IMG/VR virus record: IMGVR_UViG_3300011008_000007
Length of the DNA: 64,000 nucleotides
From: a virus
Taxonomy: Duplodnaviria > Heunggongvirae > Uroviricota > Caudoviricetes
Direction: 5' to 3' (one strand)
Below, piece after piece: positions 2,454 through 43,876 of the stretch (positions within the stretch are counted from its first letter, which is position 1; every line of letters starts with the position of its first letter). Position numbers and translations under genes: made by a program. A model generated the notes under the pieces. It was not told where the DNA came from, ran no database searches, and worked only from the letters and a program-made list of their open reading frames with translations.

Positions 2454-2651
2454 ATGGGAAATATCGCAGTAGAATTAACTGAAAAAGAGAGGCTTACTGT
2501 ATGGGCTGCGTTGGCATACTTCGCAAAAGACTATGAAGTTGCTATGGACGAATATGAAAAAGAACGCGGGCAAGATAATGGCTGGCAGGAAATAAGAAAT
2601 AGGAGAGAATACTTCCAAAATTTAGCCAACAAATTTAAAAAGGAGAATTGA
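2454..2651 (+). CDS. hypothetical protein
   Basis: ATG 5 nt after AAAGGTGG; track ORF starts at GTG 2445. Confidence 0.4.
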   Translation: MGNIAVELTEKERLTVWAALAYFAKDYEVAMDEYEKERGQDNGWQEIRNRREYFQNLANKFKKEN

Positions 2652-2653
2652 TT

Positions 2654-3007
2654 ATGACAAATACAAGAAAACCTAAAATGAGAGTATGGTGGATTCCGCA
2701 AATCGGAATCGAGAAAACATTTTATATTCCCGTTGAGAGCGCCGAGGAAGGACAAAAGATTATAGACCTTTTAGCTGCCTATGATTGCTTTGAATACAAT
2801 CAGAATGTTAAACCGGATTACTGCAATACGGGCGGTTTGGAAGTATTCGACGAAGAGAGCGGCGAGTGGGAAGATTGGTATTACGATGGAGAAACCTGTT
2901 ACTTCGACTCTGACGAACTCGATGAGTATTGCAGGCTCGAATCCGAAAGAGCCACAGAGATTGAGAATTTTAGAAATGCACTTTATGAGCAGGTAGAATT
3001 TAGTTAA
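2654..3007 (+). CDS. hypothetical acidic protein
   Basis: ATG after AAGGAG; track ORF 2648 (TTG). Confidence 0.45.
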   Translation: MTNTRKPKMRVWWIPQIGIEKTFYIPVESAEEGQKIIDLLAAYDCFEYNQNVKPDYCNTGGLEVFDEESGEWEDWYYDGETCYFDSDELDEYCRLESERATEIENFRNALYEQVEFS

Positions 3008-12381: not shown

Positions 12382-12418
12382 GCAAATATAGTAAATGAGT
12401 TACTAAGGAGTGACGATT

Positions 12419-13345
12419 ATGGCACAGGTTGCACGGGTAAAATCTAAAGCAAAGATTATTGAACTGTTTCCGCAAGTTGTTGAGGAAACCAAAAAGGTAA
12501 GTTCAGCGCCTAATAATAAGAAAAAGGGAACTAAGTCGGAAGTGTTTGCGTTCAGAAGCATTGAGGACATTAAGAATGTTATCAATTACTTCTACAATCG
12601 CGGCGAGTGGATTCATTATCTTTATATTACTCTTGGTTTGAATCTTGTAAGACGTGTAGGGGATATGCTCACGCTGACTTGGGAAAACTTCTTTGACCCA
12701 CGCACAGGAAATTTCCGAGATGATATTCTTGAAATTTGCGAGGATAAGACAGACAAGTTTGCTAACCCGCATATCAATTCAGCTTGCAGAGATGCTATTA
12801 CCAATTATCTTGCTAAGGTTGGTTATGACCCTGCGGTTGATGATTACAAAATGCCTGTATTCTATCAGTTTACCGGCACGGCAAAAGGCAGAGTTCTTAG
12901 TCAGAGCGGCGAACTCAAAGCAATGAAGAGAGCTGCTGAATATCTTAACCTCACTTATAATATCGGAACTCATAGTCTGCGTAAAACATTTGGTAAGTGG
13001 AGCAGAATACTTCACCCATATGATAATGACAGTATGGAGCTTCTTAGAGCCATATACAACCATAGTGATACTAAAACTACAAGTCGTTATATTGGTTTGA
13101 CTAAAGAGAAGATTGATGATTATTATGACGATATGGGTTCATTCTATACCGATTATGTTGTAGGAGATAAGGAGTTTAAGCATAGCGCGGTTTCTCCGTT
13201 GGTTAGCATTGAGCGCAACGATATTATGGAAGTAGTTAAAATGGCTTATCAGCTCGGAAAAGAGTGTTCAGAGGAAACGGATTCCGAGGTTCATCTTGAT
13301 AATATGACCTCAATGCTTTCGATGATAGATGACCTTGCAAAGTAA
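12419..13345 (+). CDS. tyrosine recombinase/integrase family protein
   Basis: C-terminal catalytic signature GTHSLRKTFG ... YNHSDTKTTSRYIG (HxxR...Y of tyrosine recombinases). Confidence 0.6.
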   Translation: MAQVARVKSKAKIIELFPQVVEETKKVSSAPNNKKKGTKSEVFAFRSIEDIKNVINYFYNRGEWIHYLYITLGLNLVRRVGDMLTLTWENFFDPRTGNFRDDILEICEDKTDKFANPHINSACRDAITNYLAKVGYDPAVDDYKMPVFYQFTGTAKGRVLSQSGELKAMKRAAEYLNLTYNIGTHSLRKTFGKWSRILHPYDNDSMELLRAIYNHSDTKTTSRYIGLTKEKIDDYYDDMGSFYTDYVVGDKEFKHSAVSPLVSIERNDIMEVVKMAYQLGKECSEETDSEVHLDNMTSMLSMIDDLAK

Positions 13346-17762: not shown

Positions 17763-18560
17763 ATGGCTATTATTGGTTCTATTATAGGAGACATAGCGGG
17801 TTCAGTAATTGAATTTGGAAAACCAAAAGACTATAATCCAAAAACTGCCAAGCTGTTTACAGACGATAATGAATTTACAGACGATACTGTTTTATCTATT
17901 GCTACAAAATATGCAATTGAAAATGCTCGTTATGGAGTTCCCGATTATGCCGGAGCATATCACGAATTTGGATTAAAATACCCATATTGCGGATATGGCG
18001 AAATGTTTATGGATTGGTTGGAATCCGACAATCCTCTCCCTTATGGAAGTTACGGAAACGGTTCGGCAATGAGGGTATCATATATTGCAGACTATTATTC
18101 TGGATTTGGAGAGATTAAGAGGCAGGCAGAACGTTCAGCAGAATGTACCCATAACCACGAAGAGGGAATTAAAGGCGCTATGGTTGCAGCGACTTGTATT
18201 TGGGTTGCTAAAAATGGCACAAGAAAAGATGACGTATTGAGATTTGGGAAGAGGTTTTATCCAAAATCTGAATACCCATATAGTTGCGAATATTCTTTAG
18301 ATGAACTTAGAGAGTTCTATAAGTGGGATGCGACTTGTCAAGGTTCTGTTCCTTTGGCTATTAGATGTATATATGAAGCAGACAATTATGAGGAATTTTT
18401 AAGAAATGTATTCAGCGTTGATTGCGATGCCGATACCGTAGCCTGTATTGGCGGCGGAATCGCAGAAGAATTGTTTGATGGAACGGGGTTCGACAACAAG
18501 GAAATACTTGAAAAGTATTTGCCGGAAGAATTATATAAACAAATATCAATACTTTTATAA
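17763..18560 (+). CDS. ADP-ribosylglycohydrolase (DraG/ARH family)
   Basis: N-terminal GSIIGDIAGSVIEF (GxxxGDAxG...E) and GNGSAMR, both hallmarks of ADP-ribosylglycohydrolases. Confidence 0.6.
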   Translation: MAIIGSIIGDIAGSVIEFGKPKDYNPKTAKLFTDDNEFTDDTVLSIATKYAIENARYGVPDYAGAYHEFGLKYPYCGYGEMFMDWLESDNPLPYGSYGNGSAMRVSYIADYYSGFGEIKRQAERSAECTHNHEEGIKGAMVAATCIWVAKNGTRKDDVLRFGKRFYPKSEYPYSCEYSLDELREFYKWDATCQGSVPLAIRCIYEADNYEEFLRNVFSVDCDADTVACIGGGIAEELFDGTGFDNKEILEKYLPEELYKQISILL

Positions 18561-18684: not shown

Positions 18685-19311
18685 ATGAATATGACAAATG
18701 TAAATGTAGTTAATAATGTTCCAGATATTAATGTTAATATCGACAAATCAAAAAGCGGTATTTCTATCACCATAACTCAGAAATTAGGCAAATCCCTAAA
18801 GGATTATAAACCAGGTGAAACAGCAAAGATTGGGGATAGAGAATACATTGTACTCGAACAGATGGATGACAAAACGGCTGTTCTTGATAAAAATGTTGTT
18901 GAGAAGATGGAGTTTGGCAAAGATGCTAAATGGAACGGCAGCAACGTCGAAAAATATTGTGAGGGAGAGTATTATAATTCTCTTGCCAAAGTAGTAGGAA
19001 AAGATAATATTTTATCTCACACAGTAGACCTTATGTGCGATGATGGCTCTAATAAAGGTGTATTTTCTACAAACAATGTTTCGGTATTAACTCCCGAACT
19101 ATACCGTAAGTATAGAGAATTGATTCCTTTGGTTGATATTTCTTGTTGGACGCCTAATGGTGTAACGGTTCTCGATGAAGATTATGCGCGCTGCGTTTGC
19201 ATTGTCATCTGCAATGGCATCCTGGATTGGGGTGTCTGTGATTGGACTCATGGTGTGCGCCCGTTTTGTATCTTGAAATCTAACGTCTTGACCTCACAAT
19301 TAGATGAATGA
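18685..19311 (+). CDS. DGR target (variable) protein with C-terminal VR, CLec-fold-like C-terminus
   Basis: ATG 18685 after AAAGGAAAG. C-terminus ...ARCVCIVICNGILDWGVCDWTHGVRPFCILK carries VR 19185-19265, which differs from the downstream TR only at TR adenines. Confidence 0.65.
   Translation: MNMTNVNVVNNVPDINVNIDKSKSGISITITQKLGKSLKDYKPGETAKIGDREYIVLEQMDDKTAVLDKNVVEKMEFGKDAKWNGSNVEKYCEGEYYNSLAKVVGKDNILSHTVDLMCDDGSNKGVFSTNNVSVLTPELYRKYRELIPLVDISCWTPNGVTVLDEDYARCVCIVICNGILDWGVCDWTHGVRPFCILKSNVLTSQLDE
19185..19265 (+). repeat. DGR variable repeat (VR)
   Basis: 81 nt aligning to TR 19702-19782; about 12 mismatches, all at adenines of TR; GC-rich 3' end GGTGTGCGCCCG identical in both. Confidence 0.75.
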
Positions 19312-19673
19312 GTAATGAAAATAAATTTTTAATAGGTAATAAAGCCGAAAAATTATATTTTGATATTTTAGATAAAACAACTAATAGAAAGAAATATCCC
19401 GTAAAATTTCGGAGGCTTGCCGATAAGTTACAAGAAACTTCTTTAGAAATTTATTCTTGTGTTATTGATGCAAATGAGATTACACCCAATACATTATCTC
19501 GCAAACAATGCAAATTTGATATGCAGACAAATGCAATATCGGGTTGTAAAAAATTAAACAGCTTGATTAAGTATTGTTTACATTCAAGTCTTATTAGTAA
19601 TGCTGTTGGTGAGTATTGGAGCTCGTTGGCAACAGAAATTAAGAAAATGACTTTAGCTTGGCGAAAGATTTGA
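19308..19673 (+). CDS. DGR accessory variability determinant (Avd)-like protein
   Basis: About 120 aa helical protein between the target gene and TR, the canonical Avd position. Confidence 0.5.
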   Translation: MSNENKFLIGNKAEKLYFDILDKTTNRKKYPVKFRRLADKLQETSLEIYSCVIDANEITPNTLSRKQCKFDMQTNAISGCKKLNSLIKYCLHSSLISNAVGEYWSSLATEIKKMTLAWRKI

Positions 19674-19701
19674 TTGATTGATTCTTTAGGTTATGTGCTG
19701 T

Positions 19702-19782
19702 AACGCGCAACGTTTGCATTGTCAACTACAATGGCATCCTGAATTGGAATGACTGTAATTGGACTCATGGTGTGCGCCCGTT
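19702..19782 (+). repeat. DGR template repeat (TR)
   Basis: Intergenic, between avd and RT; cognate of VR. Confidence 0.75.
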
Positions 19783-19893
19783 CTGGTTTATTAGCGAGGT
19801 CTATAAGCTGCTAAGGCGGCTACAAGGAGTGCTACAAAATATCAAAAGAGTACATAACCTTTCTCAAATATTATGGGATAAATACAAAAGAAT

Positions 19894-20928
19894 ATGGGAG
19901 ATTTTCAGAAACTAATAGATTTTGGAAACCTATATAATTCCTGTCAAGTCTCTCTTAAAGGCAAAGGAAAGAAACAAAGTGCTATAAAATTTAATATAGA
20001 TGCCTTGGAAAATATTTTGCTTATGAAGCAAGAATTAATCCAACGTACATATCAAATTGGTAAGTACAATGAATTTGTTGTTTCTGAGCCGAAACGAAGA
20101 ATAATTAAATCAGGTACTTTTCGTGATAAGGTTCTTCAACATTGCCTATGCGACTACGTTCTATTACCCAAATTAAAAGATATTTTTATTTTGGATAATT
20201 ACGCTGGTCAAATAGGCAAAGGAACTTTATTTGGATTAAATCGTTTATCAGAAAATCTAAGTAATTTCTATGGCGAATTTGGCTATAGTGGATATATTTT
20301 AAAGTGTGATATTACTAAATTCTTTTATAGTATTAATCACACCTTAATGAAAATCTGTGTAAATAAATATTTTAAAGACCCTGATATACGTTGGGTTTGT
20401 GGATTATTTATAGATAGTACAGATGGGGATGGACTTCCATTGGGCAACCAAGTAAGCCAAGTTTTTGGTTTAATGTATCTCAATGGATTAGACCACTACA
20501 TTACAGAAGAATTAGGAATTAAATACTATGGACGGTATATGGACGATTTTTATTTAATATCGGAAAGTAAAGAAAAATTAAAAAATTGTTTACGGAAAAT
20601 AACGGAATTATTAGAAAAGATAAAGCTAACATTAAATAATAAAACAGAAATTGTACCTATAACAAAAGGAATTAGATTTTTAGGTTTTCATACATATTTA
20701 ACCGAAGAAGGAAAAGTAATAAGAAAATTAACTGGAGATAATAAACGCCAGATAAAAAAGAGATTGCGAAAATATGCCAATTTCGTAAAACTTGGCAAAA
20801 TGTCAAGAAAAGAATTTGATGAAAAATATATTGCTTGGAAGAATCATGCTTCACACGGCAATTGTTATAGATTGATTTGTAGTATGGATGAATTTGTAGA
20901 ATCTTTGTTTAATCAAAAAGGAGAGTAA
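19894..20928 (+). CDS. DGR reverse transcriptase
   Basis: RT motifs including YGRYMDDFYLI (YxDD); position downstream of TR. Confidence 0.8.
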   Translation: MGDFQKLIDFGNLYNSCQVSLKGKGKKQSAIKFNIDALENILLMKQELIQRTYQIGKYNEFVVSEPKRRIIKSGTFRDKVLQHCLCDYVLLPKLKDIFILDNYAGQIGKGTLFGLNRLSENLSNFYGEFGYSGYILKCDITKFFYSINHTLMKICVNKYFKDPDIRWVCGLFIDSTDGDGLPLGNQVSQVFGLMYLNGLDHYITEELGIKYYGRYMDDFYLISESKEKLKNCLRKITELLEKIKLTLNNKTEIVPITKGIRFLGFHTYLTEEGKVIRKLTGDNKRQIKKRLRKYANFVKLGKMSRKEFDEKYIAWKNHASHGNCYRLICSMDEFVESLFNQKGE

Positions 20929-20933
20929 TATTA

Positions 20934-21998
20934 ATGAGAAAATACATTGACGGTAAAAACCGCTTTGTTGAAGTTTTTAATCCCAAAACGGGGTTTTATA
21001 TGAGAACGGGTATTATTGACAAAGAGGGGAAAGATACAGGTGTTGACCCCTTTATGCGCTCTTATCCTGCATTAATTGATATTGGAATTATGGAGCGCTG
21101 CGTGTGTGCCCACAAGTGTAAAGTAGATTGTTATCAAAAGGCTTGTGACCGAAATGGCGAAAATATGAGCCTTGAAGATTACACTTGGATTATGGAACAG
21201 AGTAAAGGTAAGCTCCAGCAGGTGGCTTTGGGCGGCGCTGGCGACCCCGATACCCACGAAAACTTTGAGGATATTTTAAAAGTAACACGAGAATATGGTA
21301 TTGTTCCCAATTTTACAAGTTCAGGTATTACTTTCACAAAAGAAAAGGCTAAGTTGTGTAATAAATATTGCGGAGCGGTAGCAATCAGTTGGCATAATGA
21401 GGATTATACATTTAATTCAATCCAAATGCTATTGGAAGCGGGAGTTAAAACAAATATTCATTATGTTCTTTCCTCTAAATCTATTGATGACGCAATAGAT
21501 AGATTAAAGAATAATGGCTTCCCAAAGGGTATTAATGCAATTGTATTTCTTCTTTATAAACCTATTGGACTCGGCAAAATTGAGAATATATTAACTGCTA
21601 ATAATCCAAAGCTCAAAGAATTTTTTGATTTAATAGATAACGGGGATTTTAATTTTAAAATTGGATTCGATTCTTGTACTTGCCCTGGAATTATTAATAA
21701 TACTCAGAACATAAATCTCGACAGTATAGATTACTGTGAGGGCGGACGTTTTTCAATGTATATATCTGCCGATATGAACGCAATGCCTTGTTCTTTTGGA
21801 AATCAAAATCCAAAGTGGTATGTAAACCTTAGAGAGAATACCATTCAAGAGGCTTGGGATGGAGCTATATTTGAGAGATTTAGAAACTCATTAAGATATT
21901 CTTGCCCGAATTGTTTAAAGCGTGCAGGTTGCGCAGGCGGCTGTCCAATTTGCAGAGATATTGTTTTGTGTAACAAGGAGTGTAAGGAACTAATATGA
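20934..21998 (+). CDS. putative radical-SAM-like / SPASM-type Cys-rich protein (tentative)
   Basis: N-terminal Cys cluster CVCAHKCKVDC, GGAGDP (GGE-like) motif, C-terminal CPNCLKRAGCAGGCPIC cluster. Confidence 0.3.
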   Translation: MRKYIDGKNRFVEVFNPKTGFYMRTGIIDKEGKDTGVDPFMRSYPALIDIGIMERCVCAHKCKVDCYQKACDRNGENMSLEDYTWIMEQSKGKLQQVALGGAGDPDTHENFEDILKVTREYGIVPNFTSSGITFTKEKAKLCNKYCGAVAISWHNEDYTFNSIQMLLEAGVKTNIHYVLSSKSIDDAIDRLKNNGFPKGINAIVFLLYKPIGLGKIENILTANNPKLKEFFDLIDNGDFNFKIGFDSCTCPGIINNTQNINLDSIDYCEGGRFSMYISADMNAMPCSFGNQNPKWYVNLRENTIQEAWDGAIFERFRNSLRYSCPNCLKRAGCAGGCPICRDIVLCNKECKELI

Positions 21999-24336: not shown

Positions 24337-24870
24337 ATGACAAAATTACTTGTAGTTGTTGATATGCAGAACGATTTTATTGATGGTGCGCTCGGCACGA
24401 AAGAAGCACAGTCTATAGTCGGTAATGTTGTTAAGAAAATCAACAGTTGGAATGGAAATATTATTGCTACACTTGACACACATTATGAAGACTATCTTAC
24501 AACCAACGAGGGAAAACATCTACCGGTTGAACATTGCATTGTCGGCTCTGATGGTCACGAACTAAATAAAGATATTCACAACGCTTTATTGAATGGTTCC
24601 GGAAAGTTAATGCTTGTTGAGAAACCTTCGTTTGGAAGTACGAGTCTTCCAAATCTAATTGATGACCAAGAGGTAGATTATATTGAGATAGTGGGTTTAT
24701 GTACTGACATCTGCGTGGTGTCCAATGCGTTAATGCTCAAAGCATTTCATCCAGAGATAAAAATTGTTGTTGACCCTTCTTGTTGTGCTGGAGTAACACC
24801 AGAGCTACACAGGGCGGCACTTGATGTAATGAAATCTTGTCAAATTGATATTCTTAATGCGGAGGACTAA
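24337..24870 (+). CDS. pncA: nicotinamidase/isochorismatase-family hydrolase (PncA-like)
   Basis: VVDMQNDF N-terminal motif and catalytic Cys context GLCTDICVVSNA, both typical of PncA/cysteine hydrolases. Confidence 0.6.
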   Translation: MTKLLVVVDMQNDFIDGALGTKEAQSIVGNVVKKINSWNGNIIATLDTHYEDYLTTNEGKHLPVEHCIVGSDGHELNKDIHNALLNGSGKLMLVEKPSFGSTSLPNLIDDQEVDYIEIVGLCTDICVVSNALMLKAFHPEIKIVVDPSCCAGVTPELHRAALDVMKSCQIDILNAED

Positions 24871-24876
24871 TAATAA

Positions 24877-25701
24877 ATGATTAAGATAAATGGCGAAGAA
24901 ATTATAATCGAAAGATTTTATGACGGTACACCGAGAATTAAAGTTAATGAGAAATACGGCGAATTAAGAAGCGTAACTCTTGACTGGATTTATGAGAATG
25001 ATGCTGAACTTGTAAGTCTTATAATGATTAACGGTCATTTAAGAGAACACGGTGTTGAAAAGATATTCTTAAATATGCCTTATTTACCCAATGCAAGAAT
25101 GGACAGAACAGAAAATGAAGAGGAAGTTTTTACACTTAAATATTTCTGTAAAGTGATTAATGGTATGAGTTTTGATGGGATTACGGTTTATGACGCTCAT
25201 TCGAGGGTCGGAGTTGCCTTATTGGACAAGGTTGTTGATATAAACCCAAAGAATGATGTTATCATAGTATTGATTAAGATTGGTGCCTTAGACGAATATT
25301 TAAATATTATTGATGATAATTTCATTTTGTATTTTCCTGACGATGGCGCCGCAAAAAGATATTCTAAAATGTTTCCTAATATCCCATTTGCTTATGGAGA
25401 TAAGGATAGGGATTGGAAAACAGGTAAGATAATTGATACCAAAGTCAAAGACAACGGTATTGACCTTGCAGGCAAGAACGTCCTCATTATTGATGATATA
25501 TGCAGTAAGGGCGGCACATTCTATTATAGTTCCAAGAAACTCAAAGAACTTGGCGTACATAAAATTAATCTCTTCGCCACGCATTGCGAAAATATTGTAT
25601 TAGAGGGTCAAATTTTAGATAGTGGGCTGATTGAAAAATTATATACGGTTGACACTATTTTTACAAAAACACATCCAAAAATTGAGGTGATTCCATATTG
25701 A
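24877..25701 (+). CDS. ribose-phosphate pyrophosphokinase (Prs)-like protein (possible ADPR-pyrophosphate synthetase Adps)
   Basis: MPYLPNARMDRT (Prs IPYxGYARQDR motif) and PRPP-binding loop NVLIIDDICSKGGT; 274 aa, shorter than canonical Prs. Confidence 0.6.
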   Translation: MIKINGEEIIIERFYDGTPRIKVNEKYGELRSVTLDWIYENDAELVSLIMINGHLREHGVEKIFLNMPYLPNARMDRTENEEEVFTLKYFCKVINGMSFDGITVYDAHSRVGVALLDKVVDINPKNDVIIVLIKIGALDEYLNIIDDNFILYFPDDGAAKRYSKMFPNIPFAYGDKDRDWKTGKIIDTKVKDNGIDLAGKNVLIIDDICSKGGTFYYSSKKLKELGVHKINLFATHCENIVLEGQILDSGLIEKLYTVDTIFTKTHPKIEVIPY

Positions 25702-27272
25702 AACCGATAGTTCCTACGCTTTTAATTGATTTTTATAAAGGTGTTCACGCTGAAATGCTCCCTAAAAAGATTGAAAAATCCGTTTCTTATTTTACTCCGA
25801 GAATGAGCAGGGTAAAACGTTGGAAATATGTAGTTTTCTTTGGTTTACAGGGATTTATCAAAGAGTATCTTAGAGATTATTTTAATGAGCATTTCTTTAT
25901 AAGAGGTACCAATGAGGTTGTAAATGAGTATAAAAGAGTAATGGACAATACTCTTGGCGAGGGTATCTATGGAATTGAAAAAATTGAGAAACTGCATAAG
26001 CTCGGCTATTTGCCAATTGAAGTAGTTGCACTTCCCGAAGGCACAAGAGTTCCTATGCACGTTCCTATGTTTGGAATAACTAATACACATCCTGACTTTG
26101 CTTGGCTTCCGCAGGCTCTTGAAAGTTTAATTTCAGCAGAGGTTTGGCATCCTATGGTCGCGGCTACGGTTGGAGATACATATCGCCAAATTGTAAACAA
26201 GTATTATAAAGAAACTTGCGACGACAACATTTCGAGAGCGCGAGCTTTGGGTAGTTTTGACTTCCGTGGAGATGAAGGACTTGAAAACGCAACAAAAACA
26301 GGCGCAGCTTGGTTGTTGTCTTTCTTGAATACGGCTACTGTACCGGCAATTCCATACCTTGAAGAATACTATAATTGTGATTGTACAAAAGAGCCTGTTG
26401 GTTTTGGTTCTCCATCTACTGAGCATTCTGTTATGTGTAGCAACTATGCCGTAGACGGTGATGAGACTACTTTGCTTCGCAGATTATTGACCGAAATTTA
26501 CCCAAATACTTCTTTCTCGGCAGTTCTTGATAGTTACGACTACTGGAACGTAATTGACAATATTCTTCCTCAGTTAAAACCTGAGATTATGTCACATAAC
26601 GGCTGTATGCTTATGCGCGGTGATAGCGGAGATTGCGTTGATGTTGTAACCAAAACAGTATTCAAGCTATGGGATATTTTTGGTGGCACAACGAACAGTA
26701 AGGGATATAAAGTTCTCGACCCGCACGTTAAAGCTATTTATGGAGATAGCATTACTGTTCAGCGCTGCGAGCAGGTTTATCAAATTTTAAAAGATAACGG
26801 ATTTGCCGCGTCAAACGTGGCGCTTGGAGTTGGTTCTTTCTCAATGCAATGTATTGAAGAGGAAGAGGAAATCGGAGTTTTAATTCCTGGCGGAACAGAG
26901 ATATACAGACAGGGCAACACCGTTTCTACAATTGAGGGAGATACAAAATTCATTTGTACAATGCCTATTTTAAAGCCATTCACAAGAGACACATTTTCTA
27001 TGGCTATTAAAGCAACATATTGTGAAGTTGATGGTAAGCCCGTTCCCATTTTCAAAAATCCAAAAGACGGCGGATTTAAGAAATCTCAAAAAGGCTGTTG
27101 TGTTGTAGAAGAGGATGCATTTGGCGGTTTACAATATAAAGATAATTACACTTGGGAAGAGGCACAGAATAACAAAAATCAACTTCTCAAAACAGTTTTT
27201 ATAGACGGAACAATGGAAAAAGAACATTCTCTTTCGGAGATTAGAAATAGACTTCACAAAGGTGATTTTTAA
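25698..27272 (+). CDS. NAMPT-family phosphoribosyltransferase (NadV/Namat-like)
   Basis: Several blocks co-linear with nicotinamide phosphoribosyltransferase: FYKGVHAEMLP, VVFFGLQGFIKEYL, LPIEVVALPEGTRVP, FDFRGDEG, IYGDSIT. Confidence 0.7.
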   Translation: MKPIVPTLLIDFYKGVHAEMLPKKIEKSVSYFTPRMSRVKRWKYVVFFGLQGFIKEYLRDYFNEHFFIRGTNEVVNEYKRVMDNTLGEGIYGIEKIEKLHKLGYLPIEVVALPEGTRVPMHVPMFGITNTHPDFAWLPQALESLISAEVWHPMVAATVGDTYRQIVNKYYKETCDDNISRARALGSFDFRGDEGLENATKTGAAWLLSFLNTATVPAIPYLEEYYNCDCTKEPVGFGSPSTEHSVMCSNYAVDGDETTLLRRLLTEIYPNTSFSAVLDSYDYWNVIDNILPQLKPEIMSHNGCMLMRGDSGDCVDVVTKTVFKLWDIFGGTTNSKGYKVLDPHVKAIYGDSITVQRCEQVYQILKDNGFAASNVALGVGSFSMQCIEEEEEIGVLIPGGTEIYRQGNTVSTIEGDTKFICTMPILKPFTRDTFSMAIKATYCEVDGKPVPIFKNPKDGGFKKSQKGCCVVEEDAFGGLQYKDNYTWEEAQNNKNQLLKTVFIDGTMEKEHSLSEIRNRLHKGDF

Positions 27273-27742
27273 TGATTAGGATTGTTGATGGCGATTTATT
27301 AGAAAGTAAAGCTAACATTATTGCACATCAAGTTAATTGTCAAGGAGTAATGGGTTCGGGTGTGGCAAAAGCCATAAAAAAGAATTATCCGTATGCTTTT
27401 AAATGTTATAAAGAATACATAAAAGAAAATTCTCCCGAATTGGTATTTGGATTTTGTCAGCTTGTACCCATTTATCTTCCGTCTGGAAAACCAAAATATA
27501 TAGCAAATTTATTTGGACAGTTTGATTATGGATATAACGGAGATTGCTACACAAACATAGACAAGCTCCGCACGGCTTTTCTTGCATTAAATGAATTTGC
27601 AGAAGAAGAAAACCTAACCGTTGCTATGCCATATAAAATTGGCTGTGTTCGTGGCGGCGCAAACTGGAACGAGGTTTTAAAAATGATTTGCAATATTTTT
27701 CAAAACGTTTACGTCGAAATTAGGCGTTTAGATAGAGGTTAA
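27272..27742 (+). CDS. macro domain protein (ADP-ribose binding/hydrolase)
   Basis: IIAHQVNCQGVMGSGVAKAI matches the Macro-domain Gly-rich ADP-ribose pocket motif. Confidence 0.55.
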   Translation: MIRIVDGDLLESKANIIAHQVNCQGVMGSGVAKAIKKNYPYAFKCYKEYIKENSPELVFGFCQLVPIYLPSGKPKYIANLFGQFDYGYNGDCYTNIDKLRTAFLALNEFAEEENLTVAMPYKIGCVRGGANWNEVLKMICNIFQNVYVEIRRLDRG

Positions 27743-27744
27743 TT

Positions 27745-28503
27745 ATGTATGATATGATTACGAAAATAAAAGAAGATTGCGTTAAATGGATTAGCTCGTG
27801 GTTTAATAAGAATGGTTGGCAATGTAATGCAATCGTTGGTATTTCTGGTGGAATTGATTCAAGTGTAGTTGCCGCTCTTTGTGTAGAAGCTCTCGGCAAA
27901 GAACGTGTTATTGGTGTATTGATGCCGAATGGAGTTCAGCCAGATATTGATTATGCTTATAAGCTCATCAATCATTTAGGAATCGAGAGTATAGAAATCA
28001 ACATTAAAGATTCCGTAGATAATATCATAAAACAGATAGACAATGCTTCGGAGCAGACATTGATTAATTTGCCGGCACGAATTAGAATGTCAACATTATA
28101 TGCGGTTTCTCAAAGTAATAACGGCAGGGTAGCAAACACTTGTAATTTATCAGAAGATTATATTGGTTACTCAACAAGATATGGAGATAGTGTTGGTGAT
28201 TTTAGCCCATTGGCTCACTTTACTAAATCGGAAGTATTGTTGATTGCAGATAAATTGGGATTGCCTAAAGAACTAATTGAAAAGGTGCCGACAGATGGAT
28301 TGAGCGGCAAAACCGATGAAGAGAATTTTGGATTTACATACGAACAATTGGATAAGGAGATTAGAGGTTGTTATAATTATCCAAAGACCAATTTAGAGAG
28401 AGAAATCACAAATAAGATTGATGAACTACACAAGAAAAATGAGTTTAAATTAAAGCCTATGGATTGTTATGATTTCCACGGATTTAAACATTATACAAGC
28501 TAA
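27745..28503 (+). CDS. nadE: NH3-dependent NAD+ synthetase
   Basis: PP-loop GISGGIDSSVV and overall NadE-like length and order. Confidence 0.7.
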   Translation: MYDMITKIKEDCVKWISSWFNKNGWQCNAIVGISGGIDSSVVAALCVEALGKERVIGVLMPNGVQPDIDYAYKLINHLGIESIEINIKDSVDNIIKQIDNASEQTLINLPARIRMSTLYAVSQSNNGRVANTCNLSEDYIGYSTRYGDSVGDFSPLAHFTKSEVLLIADKLGLPKELIEKVPTDGLSGKTDEENFGFTYEQLDKEIRGCYNYPKTNLEREITNKIDELHKKNEFKLKPMDCYDFHGFKHYTS

Positions 28504-30967: not shown

Positions 30968-31214
30968 ACATACTGTAATCAAGAGAGTAACAAATTGAGT
31001 GGTGAGTAAAAAGCCTTTTGACAAATGGAGAAATTTTATTAGAATAAGTTAATTCCTCTCCCTTGAAAGGAGAAAATTTCGGTTAAAGCCCGAAATAAGA
31101 TTTTAAAGTTTGGATAAAGAAAAAGATAACGTCGCGCGAGTTATCTCCTATAGGTGTAAGTCCTATGGCTCAATTTTACATAGATAAACTAAAGATTAAG
31201 GAGTTTATTTTACT

Positions 31215-32804
31215 ATGTTTGAAAACATTTTACCGTATTTGACAATCGGGGGCGTTGTTCTGGCTATTGTTCTTGCAATAATTATTTTCCTTTGCAAGAT
31301 TTACAAGGTAGCGGACATCGACAAAGCTCTCATTATTACGGGTGGTAAGGAACCCATTATTAAGGTTTCCGGCGGCAGTTTCGTAGTTCCGATTTTCCGC
31401 AAGGCACAGTATTTCGACTTGTGTATGCTAACGGTAACGGCGGATGAAGACGAAGTAAAAACCAGTACGTCAGTTCCTATCATTATTGATTGGACAGCTC
31501 AAATTAGACCTGATATTCACAACTTAGAGAATCTAAGAAAAGCAATTATCTCGTTTAAAGAGAGAGGTCAAGATGGAATCATTAATGACGTTGGTTTAAC
31601 TCTTACTGGCGTAGTTCGTGACATTGTTGCTTCAATGACACCAGAGGAAGTCCAGAGAGATAAAGTCACTTTTGCCGAGAACGTAAGAAATAACGTTGCG
31701 GACGAAATGATTAATATGGGTATGGAAATCGTTTCTCTTAATATCCAAGACATTAGCGATAACAATGGTTATTATGACAATATTGCTCGTCTTGATATGG
31801 AAGATAAACGTCGAGAGGCTGAAAATAAGATTGCTGCTGTTGACCAGTCGGTTCGCACACAGAAAGCCGAATCCGAAAAGATTGCCTCTCAGAATGAGCT
31901 CGACTCAGAGCTTGCCGTAGCCGAAAAGCAGAGAGATAATAATATCAAAATTGCGGGATTTAAGGCAGAAACCGATAAAGCTAATGCCGATGCTTCAATT
32001 GCCGGCGAATTGCAGAAAACCAAAAGGCAGCAGGAGATTGCTAAGGAACGTGGTCAAGTACAAGTAGTTGAACAGGAACAGGCAAATCTTGCGGCGCAAA
32101 AGGAAAAAGAAGTAATTGCGACAAGAGCAGCGGCAGAAAAGCAGAAGAAAGAAATCGACGCAGAGGCAGAATCTAATGTAAATAAGATTTCCGCTGACGC
32201 AAGAGTTTCGGTTGCCGAAAAGGACGCTAACGCGGTTAAGATTACCGCAGACGCTAATGCCGAGAAAATCCGCAAAGAAGGTATGGCTGAGGCAGACATT
32301 ATTAAGGCTAAAGGTCTTTCTGAGGTCGAGATTGCCAAATCAAAAGGTATGGCAGAAGCCGAAGTTGAAAAGCAGAAACTTATGGCGCAAGCTGAAGGTG
32401 AAAGAGCACTTGCTGAGGCTCGTGCGGCAAATGAGAAAGTCAACTTTGAGATTGAAAAACTCAAAATTGAGAATGATGCTAAGATTACCATTGCAACCAA
32501 GACGGCTGAGATTATGGCTAATATCGGTCAGAATGCTGAGTTCGTTAATATTGGCGGAAATGGCGGAGCAGGTAGCACAGGAAATGTGCTTATCGACACT
32601 CTCAATGCGGTGCCAGGTCTTATGAGGTCGCTTAATGCACAAAATGAGGCATTAAATGGTCGCTCAATTAACGAAGAGCTCAATAATTTGGTTTCAAGCG
32701 TTGCCGCACCAATCAAGGGTTTGCTTTCAACCTCAGAAACAACCAATATCAATACGAGTGAAGAATCAAAACTTCCGAGTAGCGATGCGGTTGAAGAGGA
32801 CTAA
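31215..32804 (+). CDS. flotillin-like SPFH/band-7 protein
   Basis: N-terminal TM, SPFH-like core, then a long Ala/Glu/Lys-rich coiled coil (KAEAEAEVEKQK...) as in bacterial flotillins (YqiK/FloA). Confidence 0.6.
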   Translation: MFENILPYLTIGGVVLAIVLAIIIFLCKIYKVADIDKALIITGGKEPIIKVSGGSFVVPIFRKAQYFDLCMLTVTADEDEVKTSTSVPIIIDWTAQIRPDIHNLENLRKAIISFKERGQDGIINDVGLTLTGVVRDIVASMTPEEVQRDKVTFAENVRNNVADEMINMGMEIVSLNIQDISDNNGYYDNIARLDMEDKRREAENKIAAVDQSVRTQKAESEKIASQNELDSELAVAEKQRDNNIKIAGFKAETDKANADASIAGELQKTKRQQEIAKERGQVQVVEQEQANLAAQKEKEVIATRAAAEKQKKEIDAEAESNVNKISADARVSVAEKDANAVKITADANAEKIRKEGMAEADIIKAKGLSEVEIAKSKGMAEAEVEKQKLMAQAEGERALAEARAANEKVNFEIEKLKIENDAKITIATKTAEIMANIGQNAEFVNIGGNGGAGSTGNVLIDTLNAVPGLMRSLNAQNEALNGRSINEELNNLVSSVAAPIKGLLSTSETTNINTSEESKLPSSDAVEED

Positions 32805-32885
32805 TTTTTAAGGGCAATAAACCTAACAATAAAATTAGTGCAAGAAACATAAAGAAAAGGGAGAGTGTAATTCTCTCCCACATAC

Positions 32886-32960
32886 TGAGCCGTCGCCAAG
32901 CGGTAAGGCACAGGACTTTGACTCCTGCACTCGTGGGTTCAAATCCCGCCGGCTCAGCCA
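32886..32960 (+). tRNA. tRNA-Gln(TTG)
   Basis: Hand-folded cloverleaf: acceptor TGAGCCG/CGGCTCA, anticodon loop CTTTGAC, T-arm GTGGGTTCAAATCCCGC, CCA encoded. Confidence 0.7.
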
Positions 32961-33261
32961 ATAGGTTCTCATTGACCTTAGAATAATGGGCGAGACCAAA
33001 TGAGAAGCAGGTATAAATCTCCGTCAGCAGAGAAAGTTGAGAGAATGGCTGCGTGTTATGTGTTATCTTTTATAGTTTTTCATAGGACTTTAGCGTGAAT
33101 AAAGAAGTAAGTAAAAACTATATATGGCGAGTTCAGTAATAGATGACGCAATATACAAAGTATATTGTTTGAAAGTATAAAATCCCAGGGCTCTTTTATA
33201 CGAGTAAATAATACAAAAATATCGGGGCAGTACCGAGGCTCGTTCACCAACTTAAAAATAT

Positions 33262-33729
33262 GGGGCAGTTCTGGTATTCGACAGGCTGTTGAAAGAATAA
33301 ACTTCGCAGGTAAGCTACAACCTTAATGTGCAAACTTAAAAATAAACGACAAAACTGTTGTAACACTTCATCCTGCTCTTGTAGCAACACTCTCACAGAG
33401 GGCTGCCGCATAAGCAAATTTGGATGCCAAAACAATACTCCTGCTATTCGGTAAGTATTTGAGGTTTAGGATAGAGTAGCAAAATGGTTTCTTGCTTCCA
33501 CAAAAAGTAAGTGGTGGATTTGGTTTGACGAAACTTGTCATCCCCATTCGGAATATCACGAGACCGTCACCGAATTAAAATATAAGGAGTATTATTATGG
33601 AATGCGATTAATTTAATAAAACTATGAGAACGGTAGAGGCTCGGACGGCAAAAAGAATACCTATTGCGTAAAAAGAGTTTATTTAAGTATGTAGTTTGGA
33701 CACGAGTTCGATTCTCGTCTGCTCCACCA
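33262..33729 (+). ncRNA. ssrA: tmRNA (SsrA)
   Basis: 5' GGGGCAGTTCTGGTATTCGACAGG (tmRNA consensus GGGGCUGAUUCUGGAUUCGACGGG). 3' GGACACGAGTTCGATTCTCGTCTGCTCCACCA (T-arm + acceptor pairing with the 5' end + CCA). Candidate tag ORF 33330-33413 ending ...QRAAA-stop; length 468 nt is long. Confidence 0.6.
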
Positions 33730-33895: not shown

Positions 33896-33912
33896 CATTT
33901 GGAGGATATAGC

Positions 33913-34683
33913 ATGATTTACATCACGGGTGACTGTCACGCAAAATTCGATAGATTTTCAACTAAAAGATTTCCCGAACAAAAGGAAATGACCAAAGATG
34001 ATTATGTTATCATTTGCGGCGATTTTGGCGGAGTATGGAATCATTCTGTATCAACCTCGGAAGAAAAGTATTGGCTTGATTGGCTCAATGACAAACCTTT
34101 CACAACATTATTTGTTGACGGTAATCACGAGAATTTTGACCGACTGAAAGATTTTCCTCGCAAAAATTGGAACGGAGGAATGGTACACGAAATTAGACCA
34201 AGTGTTCTCCATCTAATGAGAGGTTATGTGTTCGATTTAGGGGGAAAGAAATTCTTTACCTTTGGTGGAGCTAAAAGTCACGATATTCAAGATGGTATTT
34301 TAGACCTAAAAGATTATAAAAGCCTTTCTGATTTGGTTAAAGATTATAATCTTCGCACATTTCATTTAAGACAAATGTTGAGAATAAACCATTATTCTTG
34401 GTGGAAAGATGAACTTCCGACAACCGCCGAAATGGAACGAGGAATTAAAAATTTAAACAAAGTTGATTTTAAGGTCGATTATGTGATTTCACATTGCCCA
34501 CCAAGAGAAGTAAATGCTTGGCGAGGATATTATGACCAAGACAGATTAACAAAGTATTTTGATAAACTGCTCGAAATAGGATTAAGCTTCAAAGAATGGT
34601 GGTCAGGACACATTCATTGTAATGAATACGGAGTGTTCAGTAAATATAATGTTATCTATGAAGATATTAAGAGGTTAGTTTAA
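33913..34683 (+). CDS. calcineurin-like metallophosphoesterase
   Basis: Motifs ITGDCH, ICGDFGG, DGNHEN of the metallophosphatase fold. Confidence 0.6.
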   Translation: MIYITGDCHAKFDRFSTKRFPEQKEMTKDDYVIICGDFGGVWNHSVSTSEEKYWLDWLNDKPFTTLFVDGNHENFDRLKDFPRKNWNGGMVHEIRPSVLHLMRGYVFDLGGKKFFTFGGAKSHDIQDGILDLKDYKSLSDLVKDYNLRTFHLRQMLRINHYSWWKDELPTTAEMERGIKNLNKVDFKVDYVISHCPPREVNAWRGYYDQDRLTKYFDKLLEIGLSFKEWWSGHIHCNEYGVFSKYNVIYEDIKRLV

Positions 34684-36590: not shown

Positions 36591-38165
36591 ATGTCATTTT
36601 TTAACGAACTTAGAAAGAACATTGATGAGATTAATAATCTCCAAAAGACCGAAAACGGAGCAGTAGGTTATAAAACTACTGGCAAGAAGTTGTTGGATAT
36701 GAACTTCTCGATTCCCAAGTACAGAAAGGCAAATGAGGCTGAAATTATAGCCGATTTTGAACAGTCATTTAACGAGAACGAGATTCTTGCTATTCTTTGG
36801 ATGTTTTTCGCAAGAGATGTTCGTGGCGGACTTGGCGAAAGAAGATTATTCCGCATTTTATTCAACTGGTTTTGCAAAGAGCACACCAAGTATGCAAAAG
36901 AGTTGCTTGAATGTGTAGCAGAATATGGTCGCTGGGACGACCTTGTTAAAGCTACGGACAACACTCCTGTATGGGATGATGCGGTAGTGCTTATCAAAAA
37001 GCAGCTCACAGAAGACTTATTGAATTTTGAGGCTTCTAAAAGTATCTCACTTTTGGCTAAGTGGCTTCCGAGTGAAAGGACTTCAAGTCAGAAAACGAGA
37101 ATCCTTGCCCGCAAGTTAGCAAAGGCGCTTTCAATCAACATTGCTGATTATAACCGCATTTGTGTTAAGCTGCGCAAGTATCTTGATGTAACTGAAATCA
37201 AGATGAGCGCAAAAGAGTGGGAGAATATCAATTATTCTACGGTTCCTTCGGGCGCAAATGTAAAGTACAACAATGCTTTTCTGCGCAATGACGAAGAAAG
37301 ACGCAGAGCATATTTGGAGTCTTTGAAAAAGGGCGAAACTAAAATCAATGCTTCTGCTTTGTTCCCACACGACATTGTACATAAGTATAGCAAAAATTCT
37401 TATTGGCACGGTTCAGTAGGCTCATATGACGAAGCTCTTGAACAGTTGTGGAAGGCTCTTCCCGATATGGGCGGACTCGAAAACACGATTGTTGTTGCCG
37501 ACGGCTCTGGTTCAATGACTTGTAGAGTTGACCCAAATAGTACAACTTCTGCGCTTGAAGTAGCCAATGGTTTAGCTTTGTATTGTGCTGAACATTGCAA
37601 GGGAGAATTTAAGGATAAATATATCACATTCTCATCCAGACCTCAGTTTGTAGATTTGAGCAACAAAATCTCACTACACGACAAATTGGCTGAGGCTTAC
37701 AGACACGACGAGTGTTCAAATACCGACATCCAGGCTGTATTTGACCTTATACTCCATACTGCAACTTCAACCAATGCCAAACAAGAGGATATTCCTAAGA
37801 CTATTCTTATTGTTTCCGATATGGAGTTCGATGCCGCAACAAGTACAGGCGGTTGGTATGGTTCATCATCTTCTCTCACTCCGTCACTTTTTAAAGTAAT
37901 TGACAGAAAATATAAGGAAGCAGGTTATCAGTTGCCGCGCCTTGTATTTTGGAATGTAAACTCTCGCACAGGCACAATTCCAATGAAAGAGAATGACCTT
38001 GGAGTAACTTTGGTTAGTGGCTTCTCAATTTCGATTGTGCAGATGGTGCAGAACGGCGAAACCGACCCATACCTCAATCTTGTCAAGGTTCTTATGGGAG
38101 ATAGATATATGCCCATTTGTGCAAAATTACTCGGAAATACATTTAATAAGGAGAACTACAAATGA
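36591..38165 (+). CDS. vWA-domain protein, Ro60/TROVE-like (Rsr-like) candidate
   Basis: MIDAS motif VVADGSGSMT about 300 aa in; C-terminal blocks (IVSDMEFDAA...LPRLVFWNVNSRTGT...LGVTLVSGFS) co-linear with the Ro60 vWA region; about 520 aa like Ro60. Confidence 0.45.
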   Translation: MSFFNELRKNIDEINNLQKTENGAVGYKTTGKKLLDMNFSIPKYRKANEAEIIADFEQSFNENEILAILWMFFARDVRGGLGERRLFRILFNWFCKEHTKYAKELLECVAEYGRWDDLVKATDNTPVWDDAVVLIKKQLTEDLLNFEASKSISLLAKWLPSERTSSQKTRILARKLAKALSINIADYNRICVKLRKYLDVTEIKMSAKEWENINYSTVPSGANVKYNNAFLRNDEERRRAYLESLKKGETKINASALFPHDIVHKYSKNSYWHGSVGSYDEALEQLWKALPDMGGLENTIVVADGSGSMTCRVDPNSTTSALEVANGLALYCAEHCKGEFKDKYITFSSRPQFVDLSNKISLHDKLAEAYRHDECSNTDIQAVFDLILHTATSTNAKQEDIPKTILIVSDMEFDAATSTGGWYGSSSSLTPSLFKVIDRKYKEAGYQLPRLVFWNVNSRTGTIPMKENDLGVTLVSGFSISIVQMVQNGETDPYLNLVKVLMGDRYMPICAKLLGNTFNKENYK

Positions 38166-38995
38166 GTAAGAATTACAGCGAATTTGACAAACGAATGAAA
38201 AAATATGAGTTTGTCACAAGAACACATTTGATGACACGAACTCCTGCTATTATTAGAATTGACGGAAAGGCTTTCCATACGTTTACAAAGGGATTTAAAA
38301 AGCCTTTCGACGAAGTTCTGCAAAACAGTATGCAGGAAACAATGAAGTATTTATGTGAGAATATCCAGGGATGTGTTCTTGGATATGCGCAGTCTGATGA
38401 AATCACTTTGGTTTTGACAGATTATAAGACTCTCGAAACTTCGGCTTGGTTCGATTATAACATTCAAAAGTGCGCAAGTGTTGCGGCAAGTATGGCGACT
38501 ATGGCATTTAACAGAGCATTCCGCAAGAATGTTTTTGACTGGATGGAAGCTAATAACCCCGAAGATAAGTCTAATAATGAAGAAACTATAGCATACCATA
38601 ATCAGTTCGGTTCATATAACGCAGCATTTAATAGGGGAGCTCTATTTGATGCAAGGGTATTCAATATTCCCAAAGAAGAAGTTTGTAACAACATTCTTTG
38701 GCGCCAACAAGATGCTATCAGAAATTCTATCCAAATGGTAGGACGTTCATTCTATTCCGACAAAGAGCTTTTCGAGAAATCCACAAAGGATATTCAGGAA
38801 ATGTTATCTACGGACAAGAAAATAAATTGGGCTGAGGATTATCCTATTAGATTTCAGCGTGGTAGTTGCTGCATTAAGAAGTATGATGAGAATACCGGTC
38901 ATAATGAGTGGGTAATTGATAATGAAATCCCTATTTTCAAAGAAGAGGGAAGAGCATATATTGATAATCTTGTATTTTGCGGCGAAAATTTATAA
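38162..38995 (+). CDS. Thg1-like protein (tRNA-His guanylyltransferase family / 3'-5' polymerase)
   Basis: IIRIDGKAFHTFTKGFKKPFDE ... VLGYAQSDEITLVL matches Thg1 catalytic blocks (RxDGxxFHxF, xKPxDxR, YGQSDEYSF). Confidence 0.65.
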   Translation: MSKNYSEFDKRMKKYEFVTRTHLMTRTPAIIRIDGKAFHTFTKGFKKPFDEVLQNSMQETMKYLCENIQGCVLGYAQSDEITLVLTDYKTLETSAWFDYNIQKCASVAASMATMAFNRAFRKNVFDWMEANNPEDKSNNEETIAYHNQFGSYNAAFNRGALFDARVFNIPKEEVCNNILWRQQDAIRNSIQMVGRSFYSDKELFEKSTKDIQEMLSTDKKINWAEDYPIRFQRGSCCIKKYDENTGHNEWVIDNEIPIFKEEGRAYIDNLVFCGENL

Positions 38996-43040: not shown

Positions 43041-43334
43041 ATGAACATAGATATATTTTTAACGGTGCGCGCCTTGTGTGGTGTGGCAATTATGATTAAT
43101 CTTGCTTTGTATTTTTTGTTTAGACATAAAGAGTATTCAGCTTTGATTTATTCGGTAGTTTTAGGCGGCATTTTTACCATAGATTTTATTGCAGCGCTTA
43201 ATGAAGGTACAGTTTGGCGCCCTCTAATATTTGGCATAGGTTTGATAGCAATAATCTTTTTAATTGCCGCAGATATAAATTTTTATTTATCTGATGATGA
43301 ATATGAAGAACTGGAGCAGAACGATACGGAATGA
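43041..43334 (+). CDS. small membrane protein
   Basis: Two hydrophobic segments; ATG 43041 preferred over track start 43029. Confidence 0.4.
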
Positions 43335-43876
43335 ATATAACAAAAATCAGTCGCTATTTAAGTATGATACTAAGACATAAGCCAGAAGAAATTGGAATTA
43401 CACTCGATGAACACGGATGGGCAAACACCAAAGATATTCTTGCTGGATTAAAAATTGATATGCCGACACTACAACATATTGTAAAAACCGATAATAAACA
43501 ACGTTATTCATTTAACAAAGATGAGAGTAAAATTCGGGCAAATCAAGGACATTCTATTCCTGTTGACGTTGAACTCGAAGAAGTAATGCCACCAGCCGTT
43601 TTATATCACGGAACCGGTAAGAAATATGTAGATTCTATTGATAAGCAAGGATTAATACCAAAATCTCGCCTATATGTTCATTTGTCTTTGGATAAAGAAA
43701 CTGCATATGAAGTGGGTAAGAGGCACGGTTCTCCTTATATTTATAAGGTTGATTCGGAAGCTATGCACAAAGATGGATATAAATTCTTCCTGTCTGTAAA
43801 TGGTGTTTATTTAACTAAAGAAGTTCCTACAAAGTATTTGAGTTTGGATTACAGTATGTTTTCAAGAGGTATTTAA
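43331..43876 (+). CDS. RNA 2'-phosphotransferase Tpt1/KptA family
   Basis: [28 protein letters not shown] ... [28 protein letters not shown] matches the KptA/Tpt1 signature (LRH, HGT, VHLS). Confidence 0.65.

Follow-up and report, generated by a model that had tools for sequence, protein, structure and literature searches.

ADP-ribose-processing genes of a large phage: a macrodomain within a five-gene NAD+ cassette, an RNA 2'-phosphotransferase and a stand-alone ARH3-like hydrolase

The 64,000-nucleotide stretch analysed here (the window) belongs to the IMG/VR virus record IMGVR_UViG_3300011008_000007 (Caudoviricetes) and consists of one long run of + strand genes. Three of these had been singled out in a first-pass annotation as an ADP-ribose (ADPR) processing group, namely an ARH/DraG-like glycohydrolase (ARH), a macrodomain protein (macro) and a Tpt1/KptA enzyme (Tpt1). 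The three open reading frames (ORFs) were recovered at the coordinates listed below, all on the + strand, and their family assignments proved right, with matches far beyond chance; each adds a member to a family already known. The NAD+ module that the annotation mentioned is likewise present, in the form of PncA-like, PRPS-like, NAMPT-like and NadE genes, and the NAD+/ADP-ribose theme in one phage is genuine.

17763..18560, + strand: stand-alone ARH3-like ADP-ribosyl(glyco)hydrolase, 265 aa (PF03747, PHROG 6572)
24337..24870, + strand: PncA-like nicotinamidase of the isochorismatase fold, first gene of the cassette (PF00857, E=2e-24)
24877..25701, + strand: Adps-like PRPS homologue (NARP1 ADP-ribose pyrophosphokinase), 274 aa (SPbetaL1 Adps match)
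25698..27272, + strand: Namat-like transferase, NAMPT-like (SPbetaL1 Namat match)
27272..27742, + strand: Poa1p/Adpp-type macrodomain, predicted ADP-ribose-1''-phosphate phosphatase, 156 aa (PF01661, PHROG 335)
27745..28503, + strand: NH3-dependent NAD+ synthetase NadE, final cassette gene (PF02540, E=6e-57; TIGR00552, 191 bits)
43331..43876, + strand: Tpt1/KptA NAD+-dependent RNA 2'-phosphotransferase, 181 aa (NF002014, PTS_2-RNA)

The relatives of the window are IMG/VR contigs of ~140-180 kb and human-faecal phage records, and the nearest bacterial copies of ARH are found in Lachnospiraceae and Oscillospiraceae-type Clostridia; the source is thus a large gut phage, probably of Firmicutes. 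Identical ARH and macro proteins are recorded from a metagenomic contig of 162,032 bp. A 15-kb megablast query found no match among 50,697 phage records. The relatives of the ARH locus were found by profile-based searches, a search with ARH alone giving none. All three proteins already have PHROGs families (ARH in 6572, macro in 335, labelled 'phosphatase', and Tpt1 in 5470), and the phage occurrence of Macro, ARG and KptA domains has been surveyed earlier (Iyer et al., PMC9503650). Viral neighbourhood counts refer throughout to the best 80 IMG/VR loci each for ARH, macro and Tpt1. The ARH loci represent 27 lineages and the macro loci, clustered at 90% nucleotide identity, 18. Family membership, catalytic residues and gene order are established by these comparisons, and conservation was measured for the macro/NAD+ cassette only.

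The NAD+ cassette and its macrodomain

The five cassette genes lie close-packed in the order PncA-like, Adps-like, Namat-like, macro and NadE (24337-28503). An AAGGAG ribosome-binding site stands upstream of the PncA-like ATG, and the macro start overlaps the Namat-like stop by one base (TAATG); a promoter and terminator scan of the cassette gave nothing better than shuffled sequence. The arrangement recurs in related gut-phage contigs. PncA, Adps, Namat and NadE were all found within 6 kb of macro in 76 of 80 loci, with the order identical in 62, and the cassette was complete in 15 of the 18 lineages. Both the PncA-like gene (76/80) and NadE (76/80) are regular neighbours of macro.

The nicotinamidases of P. 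horikoshii, S. pneumoniae and M. tuberculosis are among the PDB matches of the PncA-like protein, and its D..DxH..HC metal motif aligns with theirs. The Adps-like protein shares 35% identity with the characterised SPbetaL1 Adps (272 aa) over residues 1-266 (E=6e-41), versus only 70 bits to true PRPS, a score under the ribP_PPkin cut-off. Adps is defined by lacking the C-terminal alpha11-alpha12 module of PRPS (PMC13586617), and the phage protein, at 274 aa, has no room for this module, as judged from length alone. Likewise, the Namat-like enzyme gives 402 bits to 9w5x/9w5w, taken as SPbetaL1 Namat by length and F392/R399 numbering, versus 172 bits to true NAMPT. On the similarity to both SPbetaL1 enzymes, together with the length of the Adps-like protein, the pair is assigned to NARP1, one of the NAD+ reconstitution systems of phages.

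The base used by the Namat-like enzyme may differ from that of its characterised relative. In the SPbetaL1 Namat structure Asp215 hydrogen-bonds nicotinamide, and the equivalent residue of human NAMPT, Asp219, presumably sets amide versus acid specificity. The window enzyme carries Ala213 at this site, in an NTATV motif versus GTDT in SPbetaL1, and among 77 cassette-linked homologues the position is Ser in 59, Ala in 18 and Asp in none. Given the loss of the amide-binding Asp and the constant company of PncA and NadE, nicotinic acid is probably the base used, which suggests an undescribed nicotinic-acid route of NARP1. The enzyme is further set apart by a 44-aa insertion in the middle of the selectivity-clamp helix, between GSFSMQ and TRD (residues 385-428; window 26850-26981), which opens with a glutamate run (EEEEE); across the clade the insertion relative to SPbetaL1 is 9 aa long, and the window enzyme adds 33 aa that even its closest relatives lack. 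No NadD/NMNAT domain was found among the 97 ORFs of the window. A phage NadD completing a classical Preiss-Handler set was considered and set aside, as the CTP_transf-like gene is absent from the window and present in 1 of 80 macro loci; it is limited to the lineage, described below, in which Tpt1 stands inside the cassette.

The macro-domain ADPR-binding loop reported in the first-pass annotation is borne out (HQVNCQGVMGSGVA), with 38 bits to Pfam Macro (E=1.5e-9, cut-off 22) and 142 bits to PHROG 335. The predicted structure (mean predicted local distance difference test score, pLDDT, 94) matches DarG, BT1257 and Poa1p with template-modelling (TM) scores of 0.82-0.84, and Poa1p is among both the sequence and the fold matches of the protein in the PDB. 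DarG models are its best matches in NCBIfam and PADLOC, and it lies in the same sub-fold as DarG and TARG1 (TM 0.76-0.84). However, the score to the NCBIfam DarG equivalog is 65 bits against a cut-off of 250 and covers model positions 1-143 only. Unlike DarG, macro carries Gln83 in place of the catalytic Lys of DarG/TARG1 (DarG K80), it is a single domain of 156 aa without the C-terminal DarT-binding domain, and no darT stands beside it, its neighbours being the Namat-like gene and NadE. A DarG-like eraser was consequently rejected for this gene, which lacks both the Lys and the DarT-binding domain and is set in the operon described above. Two residues, His19 (Asn in DarG) and Gln83, are invariant in 36 macro family members. 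In a multiple alignment with published NARP1-linked macros, taken from Table S1 of 10.64898/2026.01.28.702374, both residues proved to be shared with these, including the biochemically tested Adpp of Vibrio phage Gary. Macro is 29% identical to Gary Adpp (50 bits) and gives 65-73 bits to five other NARP1-linked macros. Given Gln83 and the conserved cassette, macro fits Adpp better than a DNA or protein de-ADP-ribosylase; the assignment rests on two signature residues and on context, and since the fold leaves the choice undecided it is the operon that files macro as Adpp-like.

Of the published NARP1 operons, 15% carry such a Poa1p-like macro, Adpp, which dephosphorylates ADPR-1''-phosphate, the product of the aRES defence, for use by NARP1 (Osterman et al., 10.64898/2026.01.28.702374). 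The window resembles NARP1-AP (Adps-Adpp-Namat, Vibrio phage Gary) in placing a Poa1p-like macro within the Adps/Namat operon, in the HQxNC, NxxGQ and GGxxW motifs of that macro, and in the same presumed logic, ADPR-1''-P to ADPR to NAD+. It differs in gene order (Adps-Namat-macro versus Adps-macro-Namat), in the conserved PncA and NadE that the window cassette adds, in a Namat-like enzyme lacking Asp215 and having a longer clamp helix, and in the low identity of macro to Gary Adpp. The hosts differ as well, being of gut Firmicutes type for the window versus Vibrio, Pseudomonas and Acinetobacter for NARP1-AP, with 'Bacillus' and 'Clostridi' absent from Table S1. Neither the NARP papers searched nor the Iyer-Aravind survey refers to PncA or NadE, and NARP1 or Namat together with PncA, NadE, Tpt1 or KptA was not found in the searchable literature; NARP3, which consists of PnuC and NadR, is unrelated. 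As far as that literature shows, the cassette of five genes, which includes PncA, NadE and a Namat without the Asp, would be a new variant of NARP1-AP.

The Tpt1 and ARH genes

Tpt1 bears the LRH/HGT/VHLS signature noted in the first-pass annotation, in the form ILRH, YHGT and YVHLS. It matches Pfam PTS_2-RNA with E=6.6e-46, the NCBIfam equivalog NF002014 with 242 bits (cut-off 239) and Runella Tpt1 (7kw8) with E=1e-47. R15, H16, R69 and R113 are identical to Runella Tpt1 and invariant in 20 homologues; these form the Arg-His-Arg-Arg catalytic tetrad of Tpt1 known from Shuman laboratory work. The protein is ~66-73% identical to its homologues, among them cellular enzymes of Muribaculum and Lachnospiraceae. 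Judged by these residues and matches, Tpt1 is an orthodox RNA 2'-phosphotransferase.

In 36 of the 80 Tpt1 loci the gene is inserted between Namat and macro, within an enlarged island ordered metallophosphoesterase, PncA, PurA-like, Adps, Namat, Tpt1, macro, YAcAr-type SLOG, NadE and NadD-like. IMGVR_UViG_3300045988_167080 is an example (locus L263, 1-13500), with 35 similar loci; the PurA-like protein is an adenylosuccinate-synthetase homologue and the NadD-like one a cytidylyltransferase-fold protein. In a second arrangement Tpt1 lies 6 kb upstream of the cassette (loci L328 and L331).

The arrangement recalls yeast, where the ADPR-1'',2''-cyclic phosphate released by Tpt1 is ring-opened and then dephosphorylated by the Poa1p macro. 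As in the yeast Tpt1-Cpd1-Poa1p chain, the phage encodes Tpt1 together with a Poa1p-type macro, and the two are nearly adjacent in the sister lineage. Poa1p His23 is kept as His19 of macro, and Poa1p Ser30 corresponds to Val26. Unlike in yeast, neither a 2H/Cpd1-type cyclic phosphodiesterase nor a 2'-phosphate-forming RNA ligase was found in the window, and the partner genes are NAD+ salvage enzymes versus splicing enzymes.

The window also holds 16 tRNA genes at 31032-41825, 1.5 kb downstream of which Tpt1 is situated. The following protein-coding genes lie in this cluster:

31215..32804, + strand: Band-7/SPFH protein
33913..34683, + strand: metallophosphoesterase
36591..38165, + strand: DUF2828/DUF7788 gene
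38162..38995, + strand: Thg1-like tRNA 5'-end repair enzyme

A role for Tpt1 as part of a tRNA or RNA-repair cluster was weakened by the survey of its neighbourhoods, which placed tRNA genes within 8 kb in 11 of 80 Tpt1 loci and Thg1 in 1.

The ARH signature is present as first annotated (GSIIGDIAGSVIEF, residues 5-18; GNGSAMR, residues 98-104), and the protein gives 91 bits to Pfam ADP_ribosyl_GH (PF03747, E=1.1e-25, cut-off 26). Its family profile matches ARH3 with 79.5 bits (E=3e-21) versus 27 for ARH1 and 22 for DraG. Across 35 homologues E17, T39-D40-D41 and D222/D224/T225 do not vary; of these, E17, D40/D41 and D222/D224/T225 align with the metal and catalytic residues E41, D77/D78 and D314/D316/T317 of ARH3. 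The inactive ARH-fold pseudoenzyme that the annotation had considered is thus not what was found, all catalytic residues being kept. The AF2 model (pLDDT 93) is of the all-helical ARH fold, with TM 0.67-0.76 to ARH3, MJ1187, Tri1 and DraG; the fold search does not separate ARH3, DraG and Tri1. ARH3 (ADPRHL2) is nevertheless the best profile and fold match, with a near-identical SYGNG[GS]AMR loop and all metal ligands kept. The phage protein is ~85 residues shorter (265 versus ~350 aa) and ~22-24% identical to it, and unlike ARH3 it belongs to a compact clade (~260 aa) of bacteria and phages without a characterised member. This clade occurs in no fewer than 564 IMG/VR contigs and 583 bacterial species, and it is rare among deposited phage genomes (8 of 50,697 records).

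In pairs such as DraT/DraG and Tre1/Tri1, an ARH enzyme stands beside its cognate ADP-ribosyltransferase (ART); no such partner was found for the phage ARH. An ART partner was rejected after neighbour clustering over 80 viral and 72 bacterial loci gave no transferase. The domain scan of the 97 window ORFs likewise gave no cognate transferase for ARH, and domains of the ART, sirtuin, NADAR, Nudix, 2H or RNA-ligase type were not found. Within 10 kb of ARH, Tpt1 occurs in 1 of 80 viral loci and Thg1 in 7. The loose company that emerged from clustering consists of RlaP-like and CCA-adding nucleotidyltransferases, LigA and NrdD/G. An ARH homologue was found 1-2 genes from a macro-domain protein in 7 of the 72 bacterial loci.

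Several minor observations concern the same neighbourhoods. The macro-domain protein in the seven bacterial loci has a fused C-terminal region, putatively of helix-turn-helix (HTH) type ('macro-HTH'), and several bacterial loci hold tandem ARH paralogues. The window encodes an NAD+-dependent DNA ligase (LigA-type, with BRCT) at 52696-54789, another NAD+ consumer of the phage, and of all window genes LigA is the one most often present within 10 kb of ARH in related contigs (32 of 80 loci).

Possible roles of the three genes

The combined data favour a metabolite-salvage theme of three genuine enzymes, and not a single mark-erasing system, with a probability of about 55%. We infer all substrates and the direction of flux. 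The cassette would rebuild NAD+ from the ADPR, ADPR-1''-P and nicotinamide left by host NAD+-depleting defences: macro would convert ADPR-1''-P to ADPR, PncA nicotinamide to nicotinate, Adps would pyrophosphorylate ADPR to ADPR pyrophosphate (ADPR-PP), the Namat-like enzyme would join ADPR-PP to a pyridine base, probably nicotinic acid, giving nicotinic acid adenine dinucleotide (NaAD), and NadE would amidate NaAD to NAD+. Tpt1, in this scheme recently acquired from bacteria, would spend one NAD+ per 2'-phosphate removed, releasing nicotinamide and ADPR-1'',2''-cyclic phosphate. The ring-opened product is the classical Poa1p/Adpp substrate, and Tpt1 may consequently both consume the output of the cassette and feed it. 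ARH would be an independent hydrolase, metal-dependent and ARH3-like. Enzymes of the ARH3 type cleave ADP-ribose in O-glycosidic and in phosphate linkage, also in the ADP-ribosylated RNA (ADPr-RNA) made by TRPT1 (PMC9458441); from this range it may be guessed that the phage enzyme most likely frees ADPR from a conjugate with an O- or phosphate linkage, or else from some soluble derivative.

Measured against this scheme, the consistency with the NAD+ module claimed in the first-pass annotation holds for macro, through its operon, and for Tpt1 in one sister lineage only, and fails for ARH, which has no neighbourhood link. The suggestion that the phage erases ADP-ribosyl marks is not supported for macro (Gln83, no DarT-binding domain, NAD+ operon) or for the orthodox Tpt1, both of which are probably concerned with metabolites and NAD+ supply under host NADase attack; ARH is the sole gene of the three for which an eraser role is left as a candidate. 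The best-80 contig lists of ARH and macro do not overlap, while at least 4 contigs are common to the ARH and Tpt1 lists and 2 to those of Tpt1 and macro. In contig 3300045988_167080 ARH is situated ~30 kb from the Tpt1-containing cassette, and the set of ARH, Tpt1 and macro/cassette is thus seen again in one or more further lineages of this phage group. Shared ancestry could account for this recurrence as well as function.

A more specific version of the salvage reading, a deamido variant of NARP1-AP, is put forward tentatively. The pathway would form NaAD from nicotinate and ADPR-PP and bypass NadD, with macro, Tpt1 and possibly ARH feeding free ADPR; the substrates of ARH would then possibly be O-linked ADPR conjugates or cyclic ADPR signals.

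Several observations weigh against the salvage reading. The published selectivity-clamp motif of Namat is not matched, the window enzyme reading GSFSMQC...TRD, with Phe at position 3 and Cys, a non-aromatic residue, at position 7, in addition to the insertion. Owing to this departure the enzyme could be a nicotinate phosphoribosyltransferase that uses 5-phosphoribosyl-1-pyrophosphate and relies on host NadD. By raw score the DarG macro of M. tuberculosis (55 bits) is at least as near to macro as Gary Adpp is, the fold search cannot split DarG, TARG1 and Poa1p, and in Bacillus phage Izhevsk (Tsamsa-like), the source of the closest cultured-phage homologue examined, macro stands apart from any NARP1 gene. 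Tpt1 lies 15.6 kb from the cassette in the window, and the 36 loci with Tpt1 inside it form one lineage with at least 95% nucleotide identity, so that the insertion is one evolutionary event. No cyclic phosphodiesterase that would open the cyclic Tpt1 product was found in the window. Genes of the NAD+ cassette were found within 10 kb of ARH in none of the 80 viral loci and thus none of the 27 lineages.

The role originally proposed, in which ARH and macro would strip ADP-ribose marks set on phage DNA, RNA or proteins by DarT, CmdT-type enzymes or mono-ARTs, is considered unlikely. It is in line with the DarG/TARG1 structural clade of macro (TM 0.83 to DarG), with its DarG model matches in NCBIfam and PADLOC and with the intact active site of ARH. 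Orphan antitoxin-like glycohydrolases of phages are moreover proven counter-defence proteins, as exemplified by the NADAR protein AdfN (PMC11825919), and phage ARG domains have been predicted to prefer macromolecular conjugates (Iyer et al., PMC9503650). However, the Gln at the catalytic Lys position is invariant, the DarG equivalog score is far below its cut-off and confined to the macro part, and macro is locked in the NAD+ operon in 15 of 18 lineages. The profile of ARH, in turn, is ARH3-like rather than ARH1- or DraG-like, and no transferase accompanies it in the viral or bacterial loci. A writer/eraser pair, with Tpt1 capping 5'-phosphorylated RNA or DNA with ADP-ribose and ARH and/or macro removing the cap, appears very unlikely. 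ADPr-RNA made by human TRPT1 is indeed reversed by ARH3, TARG1 and PARG (PMC9458441), the phage has genes homologous to the writer and to the two eraser folds, and ARH and Tpt1 have the shared contigs counted above. Yet the genes lie 8.7 and 15.6 kb apart amid unrelated neighbours, Tpt1 is near ARH in a single viral locus, its ~70% identity to ordinary cellular enzymes comes without sign of specialisation, and macro has Gln where TARG1 and DarG have the catalytic Lys.

It is also conceivable, if quite unlikely, that no functional tie exists and that accessory genes were gained independently in a mosaic one-strand region of a ~160-kb gut phage, their co-occurrence reflecting only that large phages are generally rich in NAD+/ADPR genes. 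Such an origin would agree with the ARH neighbourhood, never shared with the others in 27 lineages, with the disjoint best-80 ARH and macro contig lists, and with the single lineage that has Tpt1 in the cassette. Macro, ARG and KptA are, besides, each known from medium as well as jumbo phages, where NAD+ salvage genes are recorded too; the macros were predicted to act on soluble ADPR derivatives and KptA in RNA repair (PMC9503650). That survey makes no mention of PncA, NadE, PRPS-like genes or KptA inside a NadV-like operon, and it found ARG rare (~5% of jumbo phages) versus the many contigs with the present ARH clade. Independent gain is contradicted by macro, which is a fixed part of a five-gene cassette and not free-floating, and by Tpt1, which in one lineage occupies precisely the site between Namat and macro and in another lies 6 kb off, matching the Tpt1-Poa1p chain. 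All four elements are, moreover, found together in at least a second lineage (e.g. 3300045988_167080).

NAD+ depletion is among the commonest bacterial anti-phage strategies. Its reversal by phages through NAD+ reconstitution (NARP1, NARP1-AP, NARP2 and NARP3) is a young field, concerned mostly with phages of Proteobacteria and Bacillus. To this a large group of ~150-kb human-gut phages contributes a five-gene version in which nicotinamidase and NAD+ synthetase have become fixed. Were nicotinic acid the base used, the cassette would carry out a new reaction, nicotinate + ADPR-PP to NaAD, by a new salvage logic that needs no NadD and a route insensitive to host handling of nicotinamide. The case also corrects a tempting mis-annotation, in that a phage macro with a 'DarG-like' match need not be an anti-DarT eraser, and it brings out a widespread orphan ARH3-like clade of phages and bacteria as an assayable target.

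Other features of the window

ARH is flanked by a ParB-like/DUF5839 gene and by a complete diversity-generating retroelement (DGR), which lies immediately downstream of it:

18688-20928: DGR with a DUF6273 target gene, an Avd-like ORF, a template repeat (TR) and a reverse transcriptase
19311: end of the DGR target gene
19308..19673, + strand: Avd-like protein, 121 aa
19894..20928, + strand: reverse transcriptase

The variable repeat (VR, 19187-19268) and the TR (19704-19785) are each 82 nt long and 88% identical, and all mismatches but the last fall on a template adenine. Directly after the reverse transcriptase follows a radical-SAM/SPASM protein (20934-21998) with weak matches to prokaryotic viperin models.

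Among the 35 early ORFs (102-29892), a PemK/MazF-type endoribonuclease toxin domain (E=3e-24) was identified, together with GmrSD_N and SprT-like domains. A superinfection-exclusion Gp17-like protein is encoded at 2648..3007 and an integrase-family protein at 12410..13345.

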